64,000 bases of DNA from an uncultured Candidatus Saccharibacteria bacterium (GTDB lineage Bacteria; Patescibacteriota; Minisyncoccia; UBA6257; XYB1-36-10): positions 911 through 64,910 of the forward strand of contig CAYIDJ010000002.1 of assembly GCA_964362215.1 (NCBI GenBank). The letters run 5' to 3'. A program made the position numbers and the translations under genes. Position 1 is the stretch's first letter; the number at the start of each line of letters is the position of its first letter. Under the pieces are notes generated by a model. The model saw nothing but the letters and a program-made list of their open reading frames with translations. It did no database searches and was not told the origin of the DNA. Positions 35,192-63,392 of this stretch are shown here, piece by piece.

Positions 35192-37120
35192 TTAGAGTTT
35201 GTAGATGAAGATGGAGGTGCCGGCGCGGTAGTCGGGAGGCGGGGGTTCGGCGAGGTTAACGGGTAAGCCGCGGGCGGTTTTTAGCCAGAGATACTCGTTT
35301 TCGGGAGCGCGGGCAAAGCCGGGAGCGGGGATGGCAGTGGCGGAAGCGAGAGTGTTGACGGAGACGGCCAGCCACTCAATTCCTTCTTCACGGGGATTGT
35401 TTTTTTCCGACCACCAAGGAACGAAGGCATTGCCGAGGCGATAAGAGGGAGAATCGCCGCCGAAGTAGTCAACGGCGATTTTGTCTATCCGGCGGCTATT
35501 TACAAAATCATCCAGGCGTTTTAGATCTTGTCCCCAGTCATAATTGGAATCGGTAACAACGCGATAGCCATTTAACGTACCTCCGCCGAGTTCATTGAAG
35601 TAGGAAAGGAAGAAAGGAGAGGTAACGGCGATGGTGATAGCGAGCCAGACGAGGAGAGCGCTTAAGGCGGTAAATTTAACAGCGAGACGGGAGAAAATAC
35701 CGACCAGAGAACGGAAACGGTTTAAGAATGAAACGGAGGAGAGATGATAAGGAAAAGAAACAATCCAGTTTTTAACGGAGCCGGCGGCGAGGATGTAGAG
35801 CATGGGAACAGTAGGTAAAATGTGGCGGACACCGATATTAAGCGGGCTGGTAATGCTGTAGCCCCAGTAAAAAACAACAAAGAGAATCAGAGAAAATTCA
35901 ATGAAATTTGTATGGAGGTATTCACCGAGAGTGAAGCCGCGGCGGGAGAAGGTGCGTTTCATTTTAATCAGTGCCAAGAGGAGGCCGGCCAGAATAAAAA
36001 TCAGGGAAGGAAGCGGTTCTTTAAGAAGGAAGATGACGGGAAAATAAGAGAGCCAGCCGGCGGCGGAGACTTCGCCTAAGAAGTAGCCGGTGTTGCCGGC
36101 GGCGGAGCGTTGAGAGACCATTAGGACGCCGAGCAGGTATTCACCCAGCGGCTGGGTCAGGCGGTGGCCGGAGAGAAATATATCAACATCAGCGAGGCAG
36201 CGCGCCGGACGGCAGGTTTGCCCGGCGGGAGTGGGGCCGCCAGCAAATGAGTTTAAACTGAAGACAGTATCACGGTGTTGGCGGGAGGTGGGGTAGCCGA
36301 TAGTAAATACAAAGTAAACGGCATAGATGACAACGGTTCCGATAAGGAAGACAGAAAGAAGTTGTCCCGCCTTTTTTAATTTTTCGCGAAAGAGGTAAAG
36401 AAGTTTTGTTTGGAGAGTAGTGTTTTTAAGGTTAACAGCGGCGTTGCGGATAAGGTGGACGGCAGTAATGATAATAAAGAACGGTATCAGGAGAACAACG
36501 GAGAATTTAAGAAGTTGGGCGAGGCCGAAAACGAGACCAGCAATAATTAAAGAGCGGCGATTAGGGCGTTCCAGAAAGTTAAGGAAAGCCCAAGAAGCGG
36601 CGAGGATACCCAGAGCGGCGCCGATGTCGGTGGTGACATAGTGGCCGTGAGCGAGGACGGTGGGAGAGAGAGATAAGAAGGCGGTGGGGAGAAGCGCCCA
36701 CCAGCGGCCGAGAAGACGGGAGGAAAGGCCATAGGTTATGATAATCAGAAGAAGAGTCAGAAGCATTGGGCCGAGGCGAGCGGAAAAGAGAATCTGGTCG
36801 GGATTATTTCCGGATTCAAAAAGGAATTGCGTGCCAGCGGTCCATTGGCCGTTAATGTCTTCCTGCCAGGAGGGGCGGTCGGAGGGGAAGTTGAGATTTA
36901 AAAAAAGAAGGGGAAGAGCGGAAATGACCTTAACGAGCGGAGGATGTTCGGGGTTAAGACGGTAATTAAAAAATTTTAGGTAGGAGTAGCCGGCGGGGAT
37001 ATGCGCCAGCTCATCCATAACAACAGAGTCGCTCGACGCGGCGGAGAGCATAAAAGAGAAAGAGACGGCGATAAGGGCGGCGACAAGGAACCAAGGAACG
37101 AAAGATCTGATTTTGTTCAT
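35192..37120 (-). CDS. GT-C family glycosyltransferase (PMT/ArnT-like, family 39/83-like) membrane protein
   Basis: About 12 transmembrane helices. N-terminal loop SDSVVMDELAH with the DE motif typical of GT-C enzymes. Confidence 0.6.
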   Translation of the reverse strand: MNKIRSFVPWFLVAALIAVSFSFMLSAASSDSVVMDELAHIPAGYSYLKFFNYRLNPEHPPLVKVISALPLLFLNLNFPSDRPSWQEDINGQWTAGTQFLFESGNNPDQILFSARLGPMLLTLLLIIITYGLSSRLLGRWWALLPTAFLSLSPTVLAHGHYVTTDIGAALGILAASWAFLNFLERPNRRSLIIAGLVFGLAQLLKFSVVLLIPFFIIITAVHLIRNAAVNLKNTTLQTKLLYLFREKLKKAGQLLSVFLIGTVVIYAVYFVFTIGYPTSRQHRDTVFSLNSFAGGPTPAGQTCRPARCLADVDIFLSGHRLTQPLGEYLLGVLMVSQRSAAGNTGYFLGEVSAAGWLSYFPVIFLLKEPLPSLIFILAGLLLALIKMKRTFSRRGFTLGEYLHTNFIEFSLILFVVFYWGYSITSPLNIGVRHILPTVPMLYILAAGSVKNWIVSFPYHLSSVSFLNRFRSLVGIFSRLAVKFTALSALLVWLAITIAVTSPFFLSYFNELGGGTLNGYRVVTDSNYDWGQDLKRLDDFVNSRRIDKIAVDYFGGDSPSYRLGNAFVPWWSEKNNPREEGIEWLAVSVNTLASATAIPAPGFARAPENEYLWLKTARGLPVNLAEPPPPDYRAGTSIFIYKL

Positions 37121-39345: not shown

Positions 39346-40908
39346 TTAGATATGGAAGACGGGGGCGGTGGGGGGAATAGAGTCGGTTTGAGGGGGGAGA
39401 AGGTAGAAGATGTTTTTGGTTTGGCGGTTTTCGGGTGACCAGGTATCGGTTAAGAATATTACGGTTTGGGCGGGCATGGGGAGGCCGCGGACGTCAACGC
39501 CGCCGGAGTCCACAATGACGTATTTTGGAATGGCGGAGGGAAGGGAGTTTATTTGAGCGGCGAGGTCAACATAGTTTTGGTTGAAGGCGCCGGCGGTTTC
39601 AGGATTTTGTCCCCATTTAAGGAAGTAGGTGTCGTAAGTATTTATAGTAATGGTGGCGAGGAAAATTATGGCAAGAGCAAAGAGAAAACGGCGCTGGCGG
39701 GGGAGAATGGTTTTAAGATGTTCATAAACATAGATACCGCCTAAAGCGGAGAGAATAAAGACGGGCGGAATCATCAGAATAGCGCGGAGGGCGTGGGGAA
39801 GGCCTTCGTTAGAAATTACTACCGGTAAGGCAGAGATAAATAACCAAGAAAATAAAATAATCGGAAGTAACAGCGATGAATTATGGACTGGATTCCCGCT
39901 TTCGCGGGAATGACGGAAGAGTGTATAAAGTGAAATGGGGATACCGATTAAGAACAGTATACCGACGGGCCAGTAGAGCTGGGGCGCGCCAGCAAGGTTG
40001 TGGCGCCAGTTGCCGTCGCCCGCAAAATTAAACATAGCGGCGGTTTTGGAGGTATTTATAACCAGGTCTTTAAGAGGAGAAGCGGAAGAAAAGACAGATA
40101 TTTGGGAGGTACGGCCGAGGAAATCGGCGGGGTTATTTAGGAAATACAGGCCGAGCGGGGCGGCGGTGATGACAGCGCCAATGGTGAAGGCGGCGGCGGC
40201 TTGCCAGAATTGTTTGGAGCGCCAGAAGAAAGGAATAAAGACAAGAAAGAGCAGGGGCATAGCGCGGTAGGCGATGTAAGAATATAAACCGAGGCCAAAT
40301 ATTATCCCACTAAGGACGGCGGGGATGATGAATAGCCGCCACCCGGCAGGTTTCGGCCGCGCCTGTTGGCGAGCGGGGGAAATGGATTTAAGAAAAAAAT
40401 AAAGAGCCCAGATGAGAAAAGCAGGAGCCATAATGGCGCGGAAGCCGACGCGGGAGAAGTTGATGTGCCAAAAGCTCACGGCGAGGAAAAAGGAGGAGAG
40501 AAGAGCAGTAACCTCGCCGCGAGAAATCCTAAATCCTATCCGCCAGCTGGCGGACGAAACTCTAAATAATTCTTTGGTTAGGAAAAATAGTCCCAGAACG
40601 GTTAAGATACCGAAGATAGCGGAAGGGAAGCGGAGCGCCCAGGGTTGGGTGGGGGAGATGCCGGAGTTTTCCAAAGAGCCGAGGAAGGCGGCCTGGATGT
40701 TTATGAAAAGTCCTTCGCGGCCGTTGTTTTCGGGGTAGAAAACTTTGTATCCGCCAGCTGGCGGACTTGTGTGAAGCGCTTCCAGAGCGTTGTTGCCATT
40801 CATGGCCTCGTCCGGATAGAGGCCGGGAGGGGTAGAGGAAAGATTATAAAGCCGGAAGAAGGAGGCAATAGCAATTATAAGAATGAGCCAAACCCAAGTT
40901 TTTTTCAT
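39346..40908 (-). CDS. GT-C family glycosyltransferase (ArnT/PMT-like) membrane protein, with in-frame hairpin-repeat insertion
   Basis: N-terminal GLYPDEAMNGNNA motif plus multiple transmembrane helices. Residues HSRESGNPV are encoded by the GGACTGGATTCCCGC...GGGAATGAC repeat. Confidence 0.6.
   Translation of the reverse strand: MKKTWVWLILIIAIASFFRLYNLSSTPPGLYPDEAMNGNNALEALHTSPPAGGYKVFYPENNGREGLFINIQAAFLGSLENSGISPTQPWALRFPSAIFGILTVLGLFFLTKELFRVSSASWRIGFRISRGEVTALLSSFFLAVSFWHINFSRVGFRAIMAPAFLIWALYFFLKSISPARQQARPKPAGWRLFIIPAVLSGIIFGLGLYSYIAYRAMPLLFLVFIPFFWRSKQFWQAAAAFTIGAVITAAPLGLYFLNNPADFLGRTSQISVFSSASPLKDLVINTSKTAAMFNFAGDGNWRHNLAGAPQLYWPVGILFLIGIPISLYTLFRHSRESGNPVHNSSLLLPIILFSWLFISALPVVISNEGLPHALRAILMIPPVFILSALGGIYVYEHLKTILPRQRRFLFALAIIFLATITINTYDTYFLKWGQNPETAGAFNQNYVDLAAQINSLPSAIPKYVIVDSGGVDVRGLPMPAQTVIFLTDTWSPENRQTKNIFYLLPPQTDSIPPTAPVFHI
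39885..39914. repeat. GGACTGGATTCCCGCTTTCGCGGGAATGAC hairpin repeat copy inside a CDS (in frame)
   Basis: Identical element type to 1894-2000. Translated as HSRESGNPV in both the GT gene and the spurious ORF 1800..2048. Confidence 0.7.
40539..40554. repeat. 16-bp perfect palindrome TCCGCCAGCTGGCGGA (copy 1, intragenic)
   Basis: Shares the 19-bp identical stretch TATCCGCCAGCTGGCGGAC with the copy at 40750. Confidence 0.7.
40750..40765. repeat. 16-bp perfect palindrome TCCGCCAGCTGGCGGA (copy 2, intragenic, different reading frame)
   Basis: Encodes SPPAGG here versus SASWRI at copy 1. Relatives CCAGTTGGCGGAGGCGGA at 31627 and 12515. Confidence 0.7.
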
Positions 40909-40923
40909 ATTACAAAATATTTG

Positions 40924-42552
40924 CTACTGGCCACTCTTTTGGATAGCGGCTTTGAGGAAGGCAAGGAAGAGGGGGTGAGGAGTGAGGGGGCGGGATTGGA
41001 GCTCGGGATGAAATTGAGTAGCAAGGAAGAAAGGGTGGTTAGGGAGTTCAAGAATTTCCACCAGATTTTGGTCGGGATTGACGCCGGAGAAGACGAGGCC
41101 GGCGGCGGCAAGTTGGTCGCGATAGTTATTATTGAGTTCGTAGCGGTGGCGGTGGCGTTCGGAGACAGTGTCGGCTTTGTAGGCGCGGTGGGCGAGAGTG
41201 TTTTTAGCGAGGGCGCAGGGGTAGCCGCCCAGACGCATAGAAGCGCCATAGTTTTTGTTTTTTACATTAGCAGCTTGTTCGGGAAGAATGTGAATAATAG
41301 GATGGGGAGTGTCGGGATTGATTTCGGTGGTGTGAGCGTCTTTGAGTCCGACAACGTTGCGGGCGAATTCCACGGCGGCCATTTGCATACCATAACAAAG
41401 TCCCAGGAAGGGGATGTTATTCCGGCGGATGTATTCAATAGCTTTTATTTTTCCTTCAATGCCGCGAGAACCGAAACCGCCGGGAATAATGATGCCGTCA
41501 TAGGATTTAAGCTCTTCCAGAGATACCGGATTTTTCTCAAAAGATTCAGAGTTGAGCCAGTCAATAACGGGGCGGCGTTTAAGGGCATAGCAGGCGTGTT
41601 TGATGGCCTCAATGACGGAAATGTAAGCGTCGGATAAAGTAAAGTCGCCGGAGGAAAAGTATTTGCCGACAATGCCGATGCGGACGGTGTCGGGAAAACG
41701 AGAGATTTTGAAACGCTTGTGCCACTCATGACCATTGCGGCGGCGGGGTTTGAGGCCGAATTTTTTGAGAATAACAGCGGAAAGATTGTCTTTTTCAAAG
41801 TTAATTGGTATCTGGTAGATGGATTTGACGTCGGGGGCGGAGATGACGTTTTCTTTGGGGACGTTGCAGAAGGTGGAGATTTTTTCTTTGCGGGGTTCGT
41901 CCAAAGAGGCGGAAGAGCGGGCGATGATGATGTCCGGCTGGATGCCGGCGGAATTCAGCAGGCGGGTGGCGTGCTGGGTGGGTTTTGTTTTCATCTCGCC
42001 AATCATTTTGGGAGTGGGAAGGTAGCTGACTAAAATAAAAGCTACGTTTTGCGGCTGGCGTGATTTAAGCAGACGGGCGGCTTCCAGAAAGAGCATATTT
42101 TCATACTCGCCGGCGGTGCCGCCGATTTCCACTAAAACAAAATTGGCTGACTCTTTGCGACTGACATGTTCCAAGCGTCTAATAACCTCTTCGGGGATGT
42201 GGGGGACAACTTGGACGCATTTGCCGCCATATTCCAGATTGCGTTCTTTCTGGATGACGGCGAGGTAGATGGAGCCGGTGGTCATGTAGTTGTCACTGGT
42301 TAAAGTGGTGTCCAGGAAGCGTTCGTAGTTGCCCATATCCTGGTCGCACTCGCGGCCGTCATTCAAAACAAATGTTTCACCGTGCTCAATGGGGTTCATA
42401 GTGCCGGCGTCAACGTTAATATAAGGGTCAATCTTGACGGCGGTGACTTTGAAGCCGAGGTCTTTAAGAATCCGCCCGATGGAGGCAGTGGTGACGCCTT
42501 TGCCAACTCCCGACATGACGCCGCCGACTACGAAGATGAACCGTGAAACCAT
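40924..42552 (-). CDS. pyrG: CTP synthase
   Basis: MVSRFIFVVGGVMSGVGKGVTTASIG... N-terminal synthetase domain and C-terminal glutamine amidotransferase domain with GLCYGMQ. Confidence 0.95.
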   Translation of the reverse strand: MVSRFIFVVGGVMSGVGKGVTTASIGRILKDLGFKVTAVKIDPYINVDAGTMNPIEHGETFVLNDGRECDQDMGNYERFLDTTLTSDNYMTTGSIYLAVIQKERNLEYGGKCVQVVPHIPEEVIRRLEHVSRKESANFVLVEIGGTAGEYENMLFLEAARLLKSRQPQNVAFILVSYLPTPKMIGEMKTKPTQHATRLLNSAGIQPDIIIARSSASLDEPRKEKISTFCNVPKENVISAPDVKSIYQIPINFEKDNLSAVILKKFGLKPRRRNGHEWHKRFKISRFPDTVRIGIVGKYFSSGDFTLSDAYISVIEAIKHACYALKRRPVIDWLNSESFEKNPVSLEELKSYDGIIIPGGFGSRGIEGKIKAIEYIRRNNIPFLGLCYGMQMAAVEFARNVVGLKDAHTTEINPDTPHPIIHILPEQAANVKNKNYGASMRLGGYPCALAKNTLAHRAYKADTVSERHRHRYELNNNYRDQLAAAGLVFSGVNPDQNLVEILELPNHPFFLATQFHPELQSRPLTPHPLFLAFLKAAIQKSGQ

Positions 42553-47565: not shown

Positions 47566-48063
47566 TAGCCAGTTGTAAGACAGCTACTGGATGCCTTAAA
47601 AAGTATCTAGAGGAAAGTCCGGACACCAGCCAGTGCTATGCGCTGGCTATGGATAGTCGCTAACGGCGACCGGGGGAAACTCCAGGGAAAGTGCAACAGA
47701 AAATATACCGCCGAACACTCAATTTATTGAGTGTTCGGTAAGGTTGAAATCGTGCGGTAAGAGCGCACGCGTTCTGGCCGTGAGGTTAGAATGTGGCAAA
47801 CCCTATCCGGTGCAAGGTCGTATTCCAGTGCTTCGCATTGGGAATATCAATAACTAAGAAACAATAGTACAAAAACATTCTCTTTATAGTTTTAATTTTG
47901 TGGTTTGATGTTTGTTTGGAATTTGTATCTTGGAATTTGGTGCTTCCAATGCGGAGCATTGGTCTGTGCCGCTTGACTCCGGCGCGCAAGCGCCGAAGCA
48001 GATAAATTGCTGTCATTCGCCGATGAGGCGAAACAGAATCCGGCTTATAAGCAACTGGCTAAA
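47566..48063 (+). ncRNA. rnpB: RNase P RNA (bacterial type, with unusual about 90-nt AT-rich insertion near 47845-47935)
   Basis: P4 strands GAGGAAAGTCCGGAC and ACAGAATCCGGCTTAT. Conserved GGTAAGGTTGAAATCGTGCGGTAAGAGCGCAC block. P1 pairing TAGCCAGTTG/CAACTGGCTA and P2 GACAGC/GCTGTC. Ends are approximate. Confidence 0.85.
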
Positions 48064-51693: not shown

Positions 51694-51765
51694 GGCCCTT
51701 TCGTCTAGCGGCTAGGACGTCGCCCTCTCACGGCGGAAACACGGGTTCGATTCCCGTAGGGGTCA
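51694..51765 (+). tRNA. tRNA-Glu (anticodon CUC), CCA not encoded
   Basis: Cloverleaf: acceptor GGCCCTT/AGGGGTC, anticodon stem TCGCC/GGCGG with loop CTCTCAC, T-arm ACGGGTTCGATTCCCGT. Confidence 0.85.
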
Positions 51766-51771
51766 CAAAAT

Positions 51772-55869: not shown

Positions 55870-55943
55870 TGCGGGATCGTCTAATGGTAGGACATCGCCC
55901 TTTGGAGGCGAGTATCTAGGTTCGAATCCTAGTCCCGCAGCCA
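55870..55943 (+). tRNA. tRNA-Gln (anticodon UUG), CCA encoded
   Basis: Acceptor TGCGGGA/TCCCGCA, anticodon stem TCGCC/GGCGA with loop CTTTGGA, T-arm CTAGGTTCGAATCCTAG, 3' GCCA. Confidence 0.85.
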
Positions 55944-56018
55944 CATTGTATGAATTGGAAAGGTTGCCTCGCGGCTTCGCCTCATGTTTAGATATAGACT
56001 AAATAAAGAAAAGTAATT

Positions 56019-56630
56019 ATGGAAGAAATGAAACCAATCGAAAACAAAGAAGTAGAGTTGTTAGTTTCTGATCTAGAAACTCTTTTTGCTCGACTTGCTA
56101 AACTGAAAGCAGAAAAAGGGACTCTATGGTTTGGTATTAGCGGAAGTTGGAGAAAAACAAACGAGCAAGTCGAGCAAGGAGTGCGCGAAGCTGTTCGCAA
56201 AATAATCAAGCGTGGAGATGGAATTGTTTCTGGCGGTGCGCTAAATGTAGATTATTTTGCGACTGACGAAGCACTAAAACTCAATCCTACCGCAGATAGA
56301 ATAAAAATATTTCTTCCTGTTGTTTTAGATTTATATGCGGCTCACTACCGAAAAAGAGCGACAGAGGGCGTTATAACTTCTGAACAAGCAGAAGCCCTCG
56401 TCGCTCAACTAGAAAGTTTGAGAGCCACAAACTCCGACGCCCTCATTGGAAATCCACAAAATACTATAGTAGACACAAAAACTTATTTTGAACGGAATAC
56501 AGATGTGGTAAGTGCTTCAGACGCTCTCGTTGGATTTCAGGTAAATGAGAGCGAGGGTGTCGGGGACACAGCCAAGAAGGCGATTGAGCAAGGCAAACCG
56601 GTTTGTTTAGAAAAGTTTATAATTGAATAG
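56019..56630 (+). CDS. DprA-like SLOG-family Rossmann-fold protein (stand-alone, no SAM/winged-helix domains)
   Basis: LWFGISGSWRKT (beta1-G-rich loop), IVSGGALNVDYFATDEAL, KIFLPVV, and FERNTDVVSASDALVGFQVNESEGVGDTAKKAIEQGKPVCL. These parallel the DprA blocks (IVGTRNPT / VVSGLARGIDAAAH / AVLG / FPRRNRIIAGLS..VVEA..SGSL.TA..A.EQGR.VFA). AT-rich. Confidence 0.55.
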   Translation: MEEMKPIENKEVELLVSDLETLFARLAKLKAEKGTLWFGISGSWRKTNEQVEQGVREAVRKIIKRGDGIVSGGALNVDYFATDEALKLNPTADRIKIFLPVVLDLYAAHYRKRATEGVITSEQAEALVAQLESLRATNSDALIGNPQNTIVDTKTYFERNTDVVSASDALVGFQVNESEGVGDTAKKAIEQGKPVCLEKFIIE

Positions 56631-56819
56631 CCGCCGGATTTTTTCGCCGAAATGCCAGAAGTGAGGGCGCGGCGGAAGGGGGGTGTGGGGGGAATTCCGC
56701 CGCGCCCGAGCGTTCCGCCGGAGCGAAGCGGAGGCGGTCATTCTTCCGGATTCGTTTGGTAAAAAGTTCGGATTTTATTCAGGAGGGACAGCAAGTGTTC
56801 TGTTTACTAAAATAAATTT

Positions 56820-57239
56820 ATGGATATAAAAAATAAGTTGAGGGAACTTGGTTTGAATCCAGACAATTCTGTTGTAATCGGGTCCGGTATTTTGAATGCT
56901 TTGAATATTAGGGAAAGTGAAGATATTGATATAGTGGTGTCAATCGATAAGTACGAGAGCTTAGGCAGGGATAGCCGTTTTAAGAAAAAGGAAAATCATG
57001 GACGAGAAGTGCTCGCGGATGATATTTTTGAGATTGGAACCAGTTGGACGGTGTTAGATAAAGATTGGAAATTTGATGATTTTTTAGATTACTCGGATGT
57101 TATAGATGGGGTTAGATATAATACTTTACAGTTTTTATTGGATGTTAAGCGCCGATGGATCGCTGATGGGGATATACGTCAAAAAGATATAGATGACGTG
57201 AAATTGATGGAAAATTATTTGAGAGAAATGCAGAAATAA
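56820..57239 (+). CDS. minimal nucleotidyltransferase (Pol beta superfamily, MNT-like)
   Basis: VVIGSGILNALNIRESEDIDIVV fits hG[GS]x9-13[DE]hDh. 139 aa. AT-rich. Confidence 0.55.
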   Translation: MDIKNKLRELGLNPDNSVVIGSGILNALNIRESEDIDIVVSIDKYESLGRDSRFKKKENHGREVLADDIFEIGTSWTVLDKDWKFDDFLDYSDVIDGVRYNTLQFLLDVKRRWIADGDIRQKDIDDVKLMENYLREMQK

Positions 57240-57800: not shown

Positions 57801-58351
57801 CGAGTAAATAAGGAAAGGACAGAAAAGTCATTCTGACGTTACGCCCGAACATTGGAATGACACAAGGAAGTTTGAACTTTGGGGTGGTTTGTGGGAAAAT
57901 AGGCGATAGTAGAGATTTATAAAAGAATAAAGAAAGAGAGGATTTGGCGATGGTAGGTTTAGTTAATCCAGCAGGTCCGCCTGTTTTGGGGGTTTTTAAG
58001 GTGACGTATCCAAATCCAATAAAGGAGATACCGAGCGGGATTAAGCGGTTAGAGGGTCCTTTTGCGCCGGAGAGTTCGCCTTCACAAATTATTATCGCTG
58101 ACACAAGGCAGTTTCGGCGTTGGCCGGTGCTTCATCCGTACAAGGGGCATAATTTAGATGTCCTCGCGTGAAATAAATAAGGATAACGCCGCCCGCCTAA
58201 ATTTTTTCCTAAGCAAAAATTTAGGCGGGTTTTTGTTTATTTATGTATTGCCGAATTCAGGCAGTTTTTGTGATAAAATAAATTCCAATGAAAATAATGG
58301 CGAGAATATAAAAACTTTAACTCGGGCGGGGTTTGTATTATTATTTAGTTA

Positions 58352-61300
58352 ATGCCGGAAAGATTTCCCGACCGTCCGGAAAGAAATGAAGAAAACCTAA
58401 AGAAGGCGGGGTTAGAGTTGGAAAAAGAGGAAAAATCAGAAAAAGAGAAGATTTCGGAAGAAGTAATTCCGGAAGAAAAAACGCCCACGGAGATAGAAAA
58501 AGAAGTTATATTAAACAGTTTGAGTTTAGAAACTGAGCTTGAAAAAGACGCGACAAAAGAATTTAAAAAAGAAAGAAATGAAGAGTGGGAAGAGAAAAAG
58601 GATAATCTGACAATAACCGAGCTTAAAGAAACGGTAGAATTTAATGAATCACAAATAAAGAATCTATTGCATTACGGAGATTCTTTCTTTCACTTATCAG
58701 AAGAAGAGGGGGAGAAGATAGAGAAACTAAACATAAACTTGCCGGAAGAGACGGAGGAGGTTTATTTTTCCCTGAATAAAATAAAAGATTTTATGGAGAA
58801 GGCGCAGAATTATCGCCAAAAAGCTTTTAATCTGATCGGAATAACGGAAGAAGCAGAAGGTGTTTACATAAATAAGCAAGCGCAAGAAGGAGGATGGTCC
58901 TCTTTTCAGGAATTAAAAGAAGAGCATGAGCGACTCGAGGAAGAGATGATGAATTTAGACGAGAAACTAACTTATAACAAATCCTTGAAAAAGTTTATTT
59001 TTGATAAAGAATACCGACAAGAGAGGAAACAGGATAAGCAAAAATTTAAGGAAGTAAAAAAAGAGTACGAGCACAATGAAAAACTATTCCATCCATTAAG
59101 CTATTATAATTTTAGTATTAGAGAACAGATAAGAGGATTTAACCAACTTTTGGATATGTATGGACAAAATACTAAATATTTTACTGAAAAAATTGGAGAT
59201 AAATTAAGAGAAAAATTCATTCAGTATATAAAAAATAAACAAAAGGAAATGGCGCCGGCGGATGAGTTTAAAGATTATGATTTAAGTTTATGGGGACAAA
59301 ATTTTTCTAAGGTAAAAAACTGTTTAACAATTGAAAAAAGCTTAAAGGAGGTGATAACCGCGATGGAGGATAGGGAAAAATGGTATGTTTTTGATATTAA
59401 TAAATTAAAAGGAAGTATGGTTAAGAGTTCAATAAGTCAACACATTATTGAATTTTTTAAAGATGTTTCGTTTAATGACTGGGAGAAGTTTTGCGCGGAT
59501 AATGAAAACACCCTGACCGAAGAAATACGAAAGACAGTCAGCGGAGTTATAACGGATAGAATTCTGGAAACCAGAGAAAAATTTGACGATGGCCGTTTGC
59601 AGAGAGAGGCGGATAGCCTTAGTAACAGTTCTTTTGTTTTTGCTGATAAAGAAACAATGCCGATAGCCGTTATTAATTTACTTAATATTAGTGATTATTA
59701 TGATCGGGTTATGGTGGAAAATAGAGCAGCCGCTGTTTTTGAAAAGTTTAAAGAGGAGAATTTTGACGTTCCGGGAATAAAGAAAATTGTAAAAGCAAAG
59801 GAGATGGTTAATTCTGTTGGTGAATTTTTAAGAGGGGAAAGAGAAATGTATACTCGGTATTTATTAGCAGATGGTTTACTGGAGGCCGGTTCTTTTTACT
59901 TAAAATCAAACGATCCACGAATGCAGGTTTTGGGGGCTTTGTCTTTGCGTGAAATAGACAGATATGAAGGTGCCGACTCAAATAGATCCGATGAGGTTTA
60001 TAAAATGTTTAATAATGTTTATAAAGAAAAAAATCTTAATGAACGGGTAATAGGGGCCATTGGAAAAGTAGCCTTAGATGAGGTATGGTACACAAAAAAT
60101 TTTTATGCCAAGCAAATAGCTTTTAATTTAATTAAAGATTATGACCGTTTGTCTAATGTTAACCAGTGGAAAATAAAGGAGGCGGCGCCCAGGATGGTAG
60201 GATTGTTTGTTTCTAAAAATGAAGTTAGTAATATAAACGAAGAAGAAGCGGAAGTTTTAGCTAAAGTTCTTGAAATAGAACCAAAGGACCTTATAAAAAC
60301 AATTAATTTAATTAATTTGGCAATTAATACTCTTAACGTCAACCATGATTACAGCCCGTTAGAATTTAAACTTTATCATCGTTTGGCTAAAATTGAAGAT
60401 GCGGAAGATTTTTTGGTGAAATTAAATAATCTGGGTTGTCATTTTAGAATAGACAGCACGGATAAATTATTGAAAATACACGAAAACAAAGAGGAATTCA
60501 TAAGTAGAGTTAAACAATTAAAAAATTCCCTTAGTGATTCCGCCTCTTTTAATTTCATAGAGAGAGATGAAGATGTTTATAAAATAACCGATAGCAATCT
60601 TTTAGAAATTTTAGGCAGTTTTAAATCAGATAAGGGTTTGCAGAATTTTGTTCTAAACAATCTTGATAAAATCTTGGCTATTACTTCAGAAAGAAGAGAG
60701 AATTACATTAAAATTCTTGATAAAATAGAACATTCTCCCTCGCAAGAAATTCAAAAACTTAAAAACCAGATTCTTTCTGAAATTGTTTCCACTGATAATC
60801 CGGAGATATCTTATGAAAAGATAGAGCAAGTATTTTTAAAGAACAATCTGCCGGCGGTAGGGAAAATTTACCGCATTTTCGAGACGCTTTATCCGGCATA
60901 TAAAATAAAAAGTTTGATAAATTATCAATCCAGTCCGGTTTTACAGAAAGCCGGACCGACCAGACGGCGCCATATTTTTTACCAAGATTTATTAAAAACG
61001 CATATCCGTTCGGCTAACCGTTCACTTAGAGAATACGCGGAAGCTTTTTTAAGCGGCGAGGGAGTATTGGCTAAAGCGGAGCGGGACGGATTTGATAATT
61101 TAGCAGGAGAAGAAAAAGAGCGGTTAAAATATTTCTTCGGACGATTGAATACATTATTTTTAAGTTCTTCGCTGGGAGAAAACATCAAGGCGGTTGAAAG
61201 AGGTTTATCTTTAGAAGACGAATATAAAAGATTAAAGATAAGTTTGGTGGTTAAAGAAGGACAAACCGTTAAGGAGAGGGTGGAAGAAATGTTTTTGCGA

Positions 61301-62863
61301 CCGGCCGGGCTTGATTCCCTGGGAGCTCTGCTCGATGAAATGGCGGAAGCTAAAAGAGAAGCCCACGAACGAAATATGGAATTGGCTAAAAATCTTAAGG
61401 CCGGTGATCTTAATTTATCTCCGGGAGATATACTGAAGGGGGTTAATGAGAAATTTATTAACTTAATTTTACAAAATGGTTCCGTTTCCAAAGAGTTTTT
61501 AGGCGCGGATACGCCGGGTTCGGATAGTACTCCTTTTGACACGGACGTCAGTGTAGTTTTAAAGCAGGACGTGGAAAACGGAAAAAATAACGCCTTTAAA
61601 AATTCAATGGCGGCTTCTTTTGGTAATCTTGTCTTAGCCATACGCGACCGGGGGCAATTCCAAGTTACAAGACGGCATGGCCAAGAACTTGGCCGCCAGC
61701 AAACAGATAACGGTAAAATGGAACTTTTTAGCACTGGCGGGGGAGGACAACATTACGGCGTCCGTACCGGGTTTCCCTCCACGGAGATAGATTTTATTAT
61801 CGCCAGAGATTCTTTTCTTGAAAAAGGTTATGGCTACAACGAGGGGAAGGTGGAAGAATTGTATTATGAAATAGCCCAAAACGGATTTTACATACCGGTA
61901 ACAGATGAGGAAGGAGAAATTGTTTTCACTCCGGAAATGTACAACGAGTACCGAAAAACATTTGACGGTTTGGACCGTTTTGACGGTAATCCATTGGAAA
62001 TTAAAAGATTGTCAACTGGCGATTCTTATTTACAACAGGTTAAAGAAATAACTAAGGAAATGAAAAAAGACAGAAAAGAGGTGGTAAATTTATCCGACGG
62101 GATTATCAAAGAAGTCCGCCGAGCTTTAGGTGTTTTGGGAATAACTTTTAAGGATAAATATGATCCGGGAATATTGGGGGCGGAACTTTTAGATATCGGC
62201 TCTACCGGGCGGGGAACCAATATGCCAGGCGATTATGATTTTGATTTTACTTTAAAATTAGATGATAAGGATTTTGAATCCGCGGAGGTGATAGCTAAAA
62301 ATATAAAATCGGAAATGGAGTTTCAGGAGGATAAATCTCATCCGGAGGCAAGCGGCTATTATCAGTTGCGTTTGATGGGAATTACTAAAATCGGAAAAAT
62401 TAAATTAAAAGAATCACTTGACCTTGATATTGGATTTGTTAAAAAATCGGATTTGGCGGTTTTTGGTTCTCATAATGCCATTGAAGAAAAATTAGAGTGG
62501 ATAAAAGATAACTTGGGAGAAGACGCCTATTGGGAAGTTTTGGGTAATATTGTCTTGGCTAAAAAAATCCTTAAAGAGGGCGGGGCTTATAAAAGGGTAG
62601 AGCAAGGGGGGTTTGGCGGTATCGGGACGGAAAATTGGATATTGGCTAATTCCGGTAATTTGGAAGAAGCGTTTAGAACTTTCCGCGGGGCCGCTTATGA
62701 AAATGGAAAAATTATTTCCTTTGATGAATTTATGAAAAAATATAAAATTTTTAACGCCGGTATGAATATTAAACATCTTTTCCACGATAACTATATTAAA
62801 AATATGACGGAGAGCGGATATGCTGCTTTTGTTAAAACGGCTGATGAGTTTTTATCTAAATAA
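58352..62863 (+). CDS. giant Lys/Glu-rich protein (1503 aa) with C-terminal Pol-beta-superfamily nucleotidyltransferase module(s)
   Basis: Uninterrupted low-GC ORF. Residues about 1283-1299 IGSTGRGTNMPGDYDFDF (nt 62198-62248) form a cGAS/DncV/SMODS-style GS...DxDx motif, with a later acidic DLDIGF. An upstream second NTase-like segment GGGGQHYGVRTGFPSTEIDFII lies at about aa 1127-1150. No signal peptide. Confidence 0.6.
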   Translation: MPERFPDRPERNEENLKKAGLELEKEEKSEKEKISEEVIPEEKTPTEIEKEVILNSLSLETELEKDATKEFKKERNEEWEEKKDNLTITELKETVEFNESQIKNLLHYGDSFFHLSEEEGEKIEKLNINLPEETEEVYFSLNKIKDFMEKAQNYRQKAFNLIGITEEAEGVYINKQAQEGGWSSFQELKEEHERLEEEMMNLDEKLTYNKSLKKFIFDKEYRQERKQDKQKFKEVKKEYEHNEKLFHPLSYYNFSIREQIRGFNQLLDMYGQNTKYFTEKIGDKLREKFIQYIKNKQKEMAPADEFKDYDLSLWGQNFSKVKNCLTIEKSLKEVITAMEDREKWYVFDINKLKGSMVKSSISQHIIEFFKDVSFNDWEKFCADNENTLTEEIRKTVSGVITDRILETREKFDDGRLQREADSLSNSSFVFADKETMPIAVINLLNISDYYDRVMVENRAAAVFEKFKEENFDVPGIKKIVKAKEMVNSVGEFLRGEREMYTRYLLADGLLEAGSFYLKSNDPRMQVLGALSLREIDRYEGADSNRSDEVYKMFNNVYKEKNLNERVIGAIGKVALDEVWYTKNFYAKQIAFNLIKDYDRLSNVNQWKIKEAAPRMVGLFVSKNEVSNINEEEAEVLAKVLEIEPKDLIKTINLINLAINTLNVNHDYSPLEFKLYHRLAKIEDAEDFLVKLNNLGCHFRIDSTDKLLKIHENKEEFISRVKQLKNSLSDSASFNFIERDEDVYKITDSNLLEILGSFKSDKGLQNFVLNNLDKILAITSERRENYIKILDKIEHSPSQEIQKLKNQILSEIVSTDNPEISYEKIEQVFLKNNLPAVGKIYRIFETLYPAYKIKSLINYQSSPVLQKAGPTRRRHIFYQDLLKTHIRSANRSLREYAEAFLSGEGVLAKAERDGFDNLAGEEKERLKYFFGRLNTLFLSSSLGENIKAVERGLSLEDEYKRLKISLVVKEGQTVKERVEEMFLRPAGLDSLGALLDEMAEAKREAHERNMELAKNLKAGDLNLSPGDILKGVNEKFINLILQNGSVSKEFLGADTPGSDSTPFDTDVSVVLKQDVENGKNNAFKNSMAASFGNLVLAIRDRGQFQVTRRHGQELGRQQTDNGKMELFSTGGGGQHYGVRTGFPSTEIDFIIARDSFLEKGYGYNEGKVEELYYEIAQNGFYIPVTDEEGEIVFTPEMYNEYRKTFDGLDRFDGNPLEIKRLSTGDSYLQQVKEITKEMKKDRKEVVNLSDGIIKEVRRALGVLGITFKDKYDPGILGAELLDIGSTGRGTNMPGDYDFDFTLKLDDKDFESAEVIAKNIKSEMEFQEDKSHPEASGYYQLRLMGITKIGKIKLKESLDLDIGFVKKSDLAVFGSHNAIEEKLEWIKDNLGEDAYWEVLGNIVLAKKILKEGGAYKRVEQGGFGGIGTENWILANSGNLEEAFRTFRGAAYENGKIISFDEFMKKYKIFNAGMNIKHLFHDNYIKNMTESGYAAFVKTADEFLSK

Positions 62864-62866
62864 CAG

Positions 62867-63085
62867 ATGAAAATTTTGGTTAAGGTAAAGGCGAGAGCGA
62901 AGGCGGAGAAGGTGGTGGAGATGGGCGGCTGGTATTTTGAGGTGTGGGTGAAAGAGCCGCCGATTGAGGGGAGAGCGAATGAGGCGGTGGAGAGGGCGCT
63001 GGCGGATTATTTTGGCGTGGCCAAATCCAAAGTGAATATCGTTTCGGGACAGACGAGCCGGAAGAAGGTGGTGGAGATTGGTTAA
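62867..63085 (+). CDS. DUF167 (YggU/UPF0235) family protein
   Basis: KVKARAKAEKV...VKEPPIEGRANEAVERALADYFGV...IVSGQTSRKKVVEI matches the YggU pattern. Confidence 0.7.
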   Translation: MKILVKVKARAKAEKVVEMGGWYFEVWVKEPPIEGRANEAVERALADYFGVAKSKVNIVSGQTSRKKVVEIG

Positions 63086-63275: not shown

Positions 63276-63340
63276 AACCTTGAGGTAAGAGTTAGACATG
63301 GTGTAACCCGCCTATGTTTTACTAAGTAAAACATAGGCGG
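63276..63340. repeat. shared 3' module (GAGGTAAGAGTTAGACATGGTGTAACCCGCC + hairpin + TTTATT)
   Basis: ACCCGCCTATGTTTTACTAAGTAAAACATAGGCGGGT hairpin. Same block order as the other composite repeats. Confidence 0.55.
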
Positions 63341-63392
63341 GTCTTTATTATTAAAATTTGTGCGGCAGGGAAGATTGGGTGATAATAAATAA

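Follow-up and report, generated by a model that had tools for sequence, protein, structure and literature searches.

The window analysed here, i.e., 64,000 nucleotides of a contig (CAYIDJ010000002.1) from an uncultured Candidatus Saccharibacteria bacterium, encodes a giant protein of 1503 amino acids in a complete open reading frame (ORF) on the + strand (58352..62863, including the stop codon; all parts of the protein discussed below lie on this strand). We find that this protein ends in a conserved module of ~720 residues with three parts: a helical domain, a ~200-residue domain resembling the ADP-ribosyltransferase (ART) fold, and one bilobed nucleotidyltransferase (NTase) of the Pol-beta type. 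As judged from conservation and a structure model, the giant protein is predicted to carry exactly one NTase (residues ~1262-1503), with the full catalytic set of G1283-S1284, D1296, D1298, D1359, K1404, Y1413 and K1414. A preliminary description of the same DNA had read the C-terminus as a tandem pair of NTase motifs, and this reading is essentially excluded by the evidence set out below. Patescibacteria (the candidate phyla radiation, CPR) account for much of bacterial diversity, and the majority of their large proteins lack annotation. The analysis defines a conserved enzymatic module of ~720 residues, found in at least 1239 clusters and in 454 species genomes, and would provide it with a testable core, i.e., one intact NTase active site and a second conserved pocket in the ART-like fold.

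The C-terminal nucleotidyltransferase and its active site

Two Pol-beta-like motifs had been reported near the C-terminus, and both stretches were found where the preliminary description had placed them, 152 residues apart. To weigh such matches, occurrences of the loose Pol-beta pattern G[GS]x9-13[DE]x[DE] were counted in shuffled copies of the giant protein: a shuffled copy contained it 1.5 times on average, and 77% of the shuffles had one or more occurrences. Because the pattern is expected by chance, a motif match alone carries no weight, and conservation and structure must decide. Loose Pol-beta motif matches are no evidence on their own; one of the two was at chance level here. Conservation was counted in an alignment of 170 family representatives. 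A first structure model, built from a five-sequence alignment, reached a predicted local distance difference test (pLDDT) score of only 61. A second model, of residues 1010-1503 from a 26-sequence alignment, had a mean pLDDT of 87 and a predicted template modelling (pTM) score of 0.86; this pTM indicates a defined arrangement of the ART-like and NTase domains. This second model, searched as a whole, was used for the fold comparisons, and is the model referred to below unless the first is named.

Motif 2 (LLDIGSTGRGTNMPGDYDFDFTL, residues 1279-1301, 62186..62254) comprises a GS loop and a DxD metal-binding strand. The DLDIGF segment reported downstream of it was located at residues 1357-1362 (62420..62437) and contains D1359, the third catalytic carboxylate. 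Each of G1283, S1284, R1287, T1289, D1296 and D1298 is present in 170/170 of the representatives; at the position of D1359, 168/170 have Asp and the other 2 have Glu. In the model, a strand (268-272, model numbering) leads through the G1283-S1284 turn and a short helix (275-278) into a second strand (287-294) bearing D1296-F-D1298; D1359 lies on a later palm strand (341-355), and the helical lobe follows. The NTase active site consists of GSTGRGTNMPGDYDFDF together with D1359. Motif 2 is validated by its conservation across the 170 representatives, and the earlier view of it as a textbook motif like that of cGAS/DncV/OAS holds: it is a typical active site of a Pol-beta NTase (cGAS/DncV/OAS/CCA type), with palm topology in the model and invariant catalytic residues; the comparison with homologues likewise bears out its catalytic carboxylates. 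Thus, at the level of the fold, the C-terminal domain belongs to the Pol-beta NTase superfamily, having the GS-helix-DxD element, the third carboxylate and structural similarity to solved NTases.

The catalytic (palm) lobe takes up residues ~1262-1372 (62135..62467) and the helical lobe residues ~1373-1503 (62468..62860), the latter delimited by conservation and as part of the aligned bilobed NTase region. The helical lobe contains the motif NIxLAKKxLK...YK...GGxGGxGxENWIL (residues 1399-1431, nt 62546-62644), in which N1399, K1404, Y1413, K1414, G1420, G1423, G1425, E1427 and W1429 are 99-100% conserved. It has to be considered that the NTase could be catalytically dead or act as a structural scaffold, like those of NF45/NF90, MiD49/51 and Utp22. 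We regard this as very improbable, because the catalytic residues are invariant: the GS, the DxD, the third Asp and the helical-lobe Lys and Tyr are 99-100% conserved in 170 diverse representatives, the opposite of what is seen in inactive relatives.

The top-ranked Foldseek matches, at E 1e-8 and 17-18% identity, were archaeal class I CCA-adding enzymes, and the NTase-type structural matches span ~190-255 residues, mostly 215-235, which is the size of one bilobed NTase. Class I CCA-adding enzymes are built of four domains, i.e., head, neck, body and tail, and are marked by a GSxxRGT...DxD head motif and a neck motif GFSGY..ELL. Compared to the archaeal class I enzyme of Archaeoglobus fulgidus (AfCCA; PDB 4x4n/1r89), the giant protein has the same head motif and a similar neck motif (GGxGGxGxENWIL). 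It differs in having the head and neck only (~280 residues), such that ~216/436 AfCCA residues align, in carrying the NTase at its C-terminus behind the ART-like domain, and in that neither phmmer nor a family profile detected a PDB chain of significant sequence similarity. Membership of the class I CCA-adding enzymes was rejected, given that body and tail are lacking and that there is no sequence-level membership. A 2026 preprint (doi 10.64898/2026.05.29.728689) reports that a CCA enzyme of class II is already present in Patescibacteria.

Similar comparisons were made with the other NTase families. The GS motif of terminal uridylyltransferases (TUTases) is of the FGSxxxG...SDxD type, and the non-canonical poly(A)/poly(U) polymerases and canonical poly(A) polymerase (PAP) are eukaryotic families. 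Against Cid1, TUT7, GLD-2, CutA and canonical PAP, the giant protein has a GS motif of the GSxxRGT type, and it matches no NTase-related Pfam model, including that of the PAP-associated domain family. The GS...DxD...D triad is shared with OAS/cGAS and with the cGAS/DncV-like nucleotidyltransferases (CD-NTases), i.e., SMODS proteins and the cyclases of cyclic-oligonucleotide-based anti-phage signalling systems (CBASS), and these are the source of the only significant sequence-level matches of the family. In contrast to CD-NTases, no adjacent effector gene or operon was seen at 82 loci of the family, and the giant protein is 4-10 times larger. The giant protein is thus probably not a CBASS CD-NTase, there being no operon and a similarity mostly limited to the core motif.

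The giant protein itself has no match of note in Pfam, NCBIfam, PDB, PHROGs or PADLOC, and the family profile run against PDB sequences returned, at E≤10, only unrelated helical proteins. Among 26 family members, 7 weakly match the Pfam model NTP_transf_2 (best E 3.7e-5), 3 match SMODS and 11 match the PADLOC CD-NTase model 'Cyclase' (best E 1.4e-8), mostly over the 40-60 residue GS...DxD core and in one case over 140 residues. The weak matches to the NTP_transf_2, SMODS and CD-NTase models are confined to motif 2, and the giant protein falls below the threshold of the CD-NTase models. Every relative named in public sources is a "hypothetical protein", and no description of the family, of a giant CPR NTase or of a fusion of an ART-like domain with a CCA/OAS-type NTase was found in the literature collection searched, which is incomplete. 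We rate the giant-protein family as new, both as a large family of NTases and in its architecture.

Motif 1, the ART-fold-like domain and the N-terminal region

Motif 1 (STGGGGQHYGVRTGFPSTEIDFII, residues 1127-1150, 61730..61801) had been likened to the NTase block of PAP and TUTases. In the alignment of representatives its glycines are variable, G1130 being mostly Val or a gap in relatives and G1132 being Asn, Glu or Asp. What is conserved, at 88-99%, is the core H-Y-G-I-R-T-G (residues 1134-1140, nt 61751-61771), which lies outside any Pol-beta/NTase signature. In the model, motif 1 is a beta-hairpin of strands 125-128 and 139-142 (residues 1134-1137 and 1148-1151) with no helix between them. 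With an unconserved Gly-Gly, a beta-hairpin instead of the Pol-beta topology and a pattern at chance level, motif 1 does not stand as an NTase block.

This bears directly on the proposal of a tandem NTase pair, either GlnE-like or made up of a pseudo-active and an active copy. Both stretches do satisfy the loose G[GS]x9-13[DE]x[DE] pattern, and in motif 1 position E1145 is acidic in 159/170 representatives; at D1147, 136/170 have Asp and 33/170 have Asn or Ser. The pattern is, however, the one expected 1.5 times per shuffle, the Gly-Gly of motif 1 is not conserved and its hairpin has no GS-helix element. Moreover, alignment to NTase structures is confined to a single region of NTase size, and the best non-NTase structural match of the domain holding motif 1 is the ART fold. 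The absence of a Pol-beta topology and of conserved glycines, which the preliminary description had itself named as findings that would tell against its proposal, is what motif 1 presents. The probability that we leave to a tandem pair is accordingly the smallest of any reading considered here. GlnE and GlnD are also large proteins with an NTase active site; in comparison, the giant protein has one NTase domain and no Pfam or NCBIfam GlnE/GlnD match. Membership of the GlnE-like double NTases was rejected, as only one NTase is present.

The middle domain that holds motif 1 (residues ~1016-1215, 61397..61996) is beta-rich and separate from the NTase in the model, and resembles the ART fold of the NAD+ lobe of Tpt1. 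By our own reading of the alignment, the order of its strands and helices matches that of the Tpt1 lobe. Because of the structural match to the Tpt1 NAD+ lobe and the agreeing order of secondary structure, we name the domain ART-fold-like, an assignment that the model suggests at the level of the fold only. Its invariant set comprises GDxxKG (1025-1030), E1048, D1058-T-P-x-D-x-D1065, E1124, HYGIRTG, Y1180-x-P, Y1197 and R1201, the invariant polar residues being K1029, D1058, D1063, D1065, E1124, H1134 and R1138. The conserved K/D-x-D/E/H-Y-G-x-R set fits neither of the ART triads, i.e., H-Y-E and R-S-E. A linker and a long helix (residues ~1216-1261, 61997..62134; helix 1227-1261, model helix 218-252) join the domain to the NTase.

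The crystal described for the Tpt1 entry contains residues 101-230 only, i.e., the NAD+ lobe with its ADP-ribosyltransferase fold, in which H117, T119 and R138 are important for NAD+ binding (PMC10415124). The middle domain shares the fold of this lobe. It differs in that the HGT of Tpt1/KptA is replaced by K-G-[VI], in the apparent absence of the RNA (winged-helix) lobe, and in two features absent from Tpt1, namely added strands that bear the hairpin of HYGIRTG and a loop with the acidic sequence D-T-P-x-D-x-D. In the giant protein, K1029-G1030-V stands where Tpt1 has H-G-T, so that the NAD+-binding His and Thr of Tpt1 are missing. For a profile-profile comparison (hhalign), a small Tpt1 alignment was built from three PDB homologs and KptA of E. 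coli; with a probability of 0.6%, the middle domain showed no significant similarity to it. The sole local alignment returned, itself non-significant, sets K1029-G1030 on the H-G of the Tpt1 HGT.

Searched against a 5.8-billion protein set, the profile of the middle domain retrieved only fragments of the same family and no stand-alone or annotated relative. One truncated relative (P0255, 302 residues, at 297-1205 of locus L085, next to ftsZ) has a partial helical domain and the ART-like domain and no NTase; it may be a decayed copy. In a search of the middle-domain profile against PDB sequences, the HYGIRTG...YIPV segment (residues 1110-1175, nt ~61679-61876) resembled the LytR-CpsA-Psr (LCP) phosphotransferase Cps2A at E 0.11, i.e., at chance level, and Cps2A was rejected as evidence of a relative.

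The conserved helical domain (residues ~780-1015, 60689..61396), delimited by conserved positions in the 170 representatives, forms the first part of the C-terminal module. S797, E825, F828, P834, K838, S861-P862, D879, S887 and N889 are conserved in at least 90% of them. The first, five-sequence model renders residues 780-1015 as all-helical at low confidence, and no structural match was found for the domain. The Tpt1 winged-helix RNA lobe, with its catalytic Arg-His-Arg, was not seen in residues 780-1015 of this low-confidence all-helical model, no search with the isolated domain having been made.

Residues 1-779 (58352..60688) form a hypervariable, Lys/Glu-rich N-terminal region that cannot be aligned with the nearest homolog. 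This closest homolog, P0039, is 55% identical over residues 780-1501 and has no similarity in the preceding 780 residues. When N-terminal parts were compared by BLAST with 162 family members, the only matches were P0006, a near-identical copy of the giant protein, and one of 89 residues at the boundary. Because the identity with P0039 starts at residue 780 and the N-terminal BLAST is near-empty, we describe the giant protein as a hypervariable N-terminus fused to a conserved module. Pfam and NCBIfam searches of the whole protein returned nothing for residues 1-779. The preliminary description had called the first ~1100 residues Lys/Glu-rich and free of any domain; the richness was borne out (25% Lys+Glu in residues 1-786), but residues ~780-1126 lie in the conserved module.

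Distribution of the family and proposed function

A first search for relatives found four only. The profile of the C-terminal 717 residues was then scored against 1.84 billion cluster representatives of a 50%-clustered library, with at least 1239 proteins (50%-identity clusters) matching at E≤0.001, of which 815 reach E≤1e-30. Nearly all of the 150 best matches listed carry the whole 720-residue module at the C-terminus, preceded by an N-terminal part of ~0 to 2600 residues. The seven longest family members (2041-3317 residues) have no Pfam domain, and in the N-terminal parts of 26 members Pfam gave only sporadic single matches, including HEPN_RiboL-PSP (E 7.5e-5) and MID_MedPIWI (E 4.6e-5). 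In 6/170 relatives (P0041, P0051, P0075, P0095, P0131 and P0132) a hydrophobic segment of ~27-33 residues lies past the NTase domain, which suggests a tail-anchored subgroup.

When GTDB species, each represented by a single genome, were scanned, relatives were found in 454 of 185,579 genomes. The best 80 of the 454 include all major groups of Patescibacteria, i.e., Parcubacteria lineages, Microgenomates (Daviesbacteria, Roizmanbacteria, Gottesmanbacteria), Saccharibacteria, Peribacteria and Gracilibacteria, together with many metagenome-assembled genomes (MAGs) of gut "uncultured Bacilli". A few relatives occur in MAGs labelled Gammaproteobacteria or Micavibrio, labels which may be unreliable. 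One MAG labelled Micavibrio has two family copies on separate contigs (CAYRUU010000038.1 and CAYRUU010000030.1; loci L044 and L052).

Clustering of all ORFs at 82 loci revealed no gene family common to more than 5 of them. The giant gene is compositionally foreign in the window: its GC content at third codon positions (GC3) is 0.335 and its GC3 skew is +0.23, while most flanking genes of the + strand have a GC3 of 0.45-0.70 and a skew of about +0.5 to +0.7. At ~60 comparable loci, the family gene is lower in GC3 than its neighbours (by >0.05) in 23 and higher in 3. The absence of conserved neighbours, the low GC3 and skew and the scattered distribution over 454 genomes point to an accessory gene that moves horizontally, rather than a core housekeeping gene. 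Because the gene behaves as accessory and horizontally mobile, it is suggested to serve in conflicts with phages, hosts or competitors, and not in housekeeping.

The best joint explanation of these observations, and one towards which we lean slightly, is that the giant protein represents an unannotated family with one NTase and an ART-like second site, which adds nucleotides to RNA 3' ends and has an accessory role in conflict. From its enzyme class, the NTase would bind a nucleoside triphosphate with two Mg2+ ions and transfer the nucleoside monophosphate to a hydroxyl in a template-independent manner. Taken by itself, the proposal that the acceptor is the RNA 3' end is tentative, with somewhat less than an even chance; it is favoured because two methods agree in placing TUTases, poly(A) polymerases and the class I CCA-adding enzyme closest in structure. 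The HYGIRTG hairpin and the polar residues of the ART-like domain would form a second ligand-binding or catalytic site. This site would handle a nucleotide or a phosphorylated nucleic-acid end and would be rigidly coupled to the NTase. ART domains of the KptA/Tpt1 type act on phosphorylated RNA ends (PMC9503650; PMC10415124), which makes an RNA-end function attractive for the ART-like and NTase pair, although this is an analogy and the Tpt1 signature residues are absent. The fast-evolving N-terminus would supply targeting or regulation.

Several points weigh against RNA 3'-end addition by a mobile accessory gene. The body and tail domains, which bind tRNA in CCA-adding enzymes, are absent from the giant protein, and the sequence-level matches that do exist favour CD-NTase models over CCA/TUTase models. 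With regard to mobility, no phage or plasmid copies were found in IMG/VR, GenBank phages or PLSDB plasmids, and the low GC3 may reflect low expression instead of transfer.

The preference of the sequence models for CD-NTases introduces the main rival to the RNA 3'-end reading, i.e., a signal synthase like OAS or the CD-NTases. Here the N-terminus would sense a phage or other foreign cue, the NTase would make a linear or cyclic oligonucleotide, and the ART-like domain would be the effector in cis or act via an unlinked partner, such that a single polypeptide forms a defence system. GSxxRGT...DxD is the form found in OAS, CD-NTases and class I CCA-adding enzymes alike, the 'Cyclase' and SMODS matches described above (11/26, best E 1.4e-8, and 3/26) agree with such a synthase, and a hypervariable N-terminus beside a conserved enzyme, with foreign-looking composition, would suit an immune gene. 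However, the conserved adjacent effector gene that is the hallmark of CBASS operons, where it is often accompanied by Cap2/Cap3 or HORMA/TRIP13, is missing, and no other defence genes are consistently close by. In addition, the PADLOC matches mostly cover the 40-60 residue core and do not include the giant protein itself, and with two methods it is enzymes of RNA 3' ends that come out as the best structural matches. We consider the signal synthase unlikely.

A second alternative is that the giant protein is a delivered effector that nucleotidylylates (e.g., AMPylates) a host or prey protein, like the NTases of the DrrA or GlnE type, with the N-terminus serving delivery or target recognition. 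Record titles place members of the family in episymbiotic Patescibacteria and in MAGs that bear the names of predators (Micavibrio and Pseudobdellovibrionaceae), and the N-terminus of the family is fast-evolving. Delivery is argued against by the lack of a signal peptide, of a transmembrane segment in 164/170 members and of secretion-system neighbours, and MAG labels on short contigs may be binning errors; we therefore hold an effector of this kind to be improbable.

Should the NTase prove to modify RNA ends or to make a nucleotide signal, the module would be a new architecture for either activity, with a possible bearing on the dealings of episymbionts with hosts or phages. A more far-reaching proposal, which we regard as doubtful while giving it more credence than the signal synthase, is that ultra-small, host-dependent bacteria possess a widespread enzyme system that has not been described before, with the giant polypeptide as its founding example. 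In such a system, a divergent ART-fold domain with a new ART signature (K-G, D-T-P-x-D-x-D, E, H-Y-G-I-R-T-G) would be rigidly coupled to a CCA/OAS-type NTase, the two would jointly carry out a two-step nucleotide-based modification (e.g., RNA-end tagging or repair, or a new nucleotide signal), and the N-terminus would direct this activity in host-symbiont or phage conflict.

Gene boundaries and surroundings in the window

The single 1503-residue ORF that had been reported is uninterrupted, and a protein identical to the giant protein is present in public Hainich groundwater assemblies (0.1 µm fraction). Its N-terminus is highly charged, the reported absence of a signal peptide was upheld, and there is no hydrophobic stretch long enough for a membrane helix; the giant protein is cytoplasmic. 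The lack of a Shine-Dalgarno sequence was also confirmed, with no AGGAGG-like sequence or purine run in the ~20 nt ahead of the ATG.

Upstream of the gene, consensus scans gave pattern matches to a terminator-like hairpin with a 16-bp stem (58191-58230, +) and to two promoter-like sites (58270-58298 and 58317-58344, +). Downstream, a DUF167/YggU gene (62867-63085, +; Pfam PF02594, E 4e-21) begins 4 nt past the stop codon, and a terminator scan found a strong terminator-like hairpin after it (63306-63342, +). The giant gene and the DUF167 gene probably form their own transcription unit, ending, as predicted from sequence, at hairpin 63306-63342. The two hairpins, which flank this gene pair, have almost the same stem sequence (CCCGCCTA...TAGGCGGG) and may be a repeated element. 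The 550-nt gap upstream of the giant gene has no Rfam family and no unusual folding energy. Within the ~390 nt ahead of the upstream hairpin (57801-58190) there is no convincing ORF and no Rfam match (best E 0.25), and the folding energy is ordinary (z -0.9).

The neighbours of the giant gene in the window are a lipoprotein-like ORF and the DUF167 gene. Further upstream, a DprA-family-like gene (56019-56630; PF02481, E 6e-8) directly follows tRNA-Gln (55870-55943) and is foreign in composition (GC3 0.31, GC3 skew -0.02). After it comes a 139-residue ORF (56820-57239) with an NTase-like GSG...SEDIDIVV motif and no Pfam match. The stretch 55870-57239 may be a small island that also takes in the giant gene.

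Across the window (1-64000) there is a very strong strand asymmetry, with an overall GC skew of +0.32. Genes on the + strand have a GC3 skew of about +0.5, and real minus-strand genes, read along their coding strand, one of about -0.6 (measured at 35192-37120, 39346-40908 and the pyrG-like 40924-42552), from which it follows that G exceeds C on the + strand whatever the orientation of the gene. A CCA is encoded after tRNA-Gln and none after tRNA-Glu (51694-51766; 3' end ...GGGGTCACAAAA); because tRNA-Glu has no encoded CCA, the organism requires a CCA-adding activity. The window also contains a bacterial RNase P RNA (47568-48063; class A, 214 bits), whose length of 496 nt compared to a 367-position model implies sizeable insertions.

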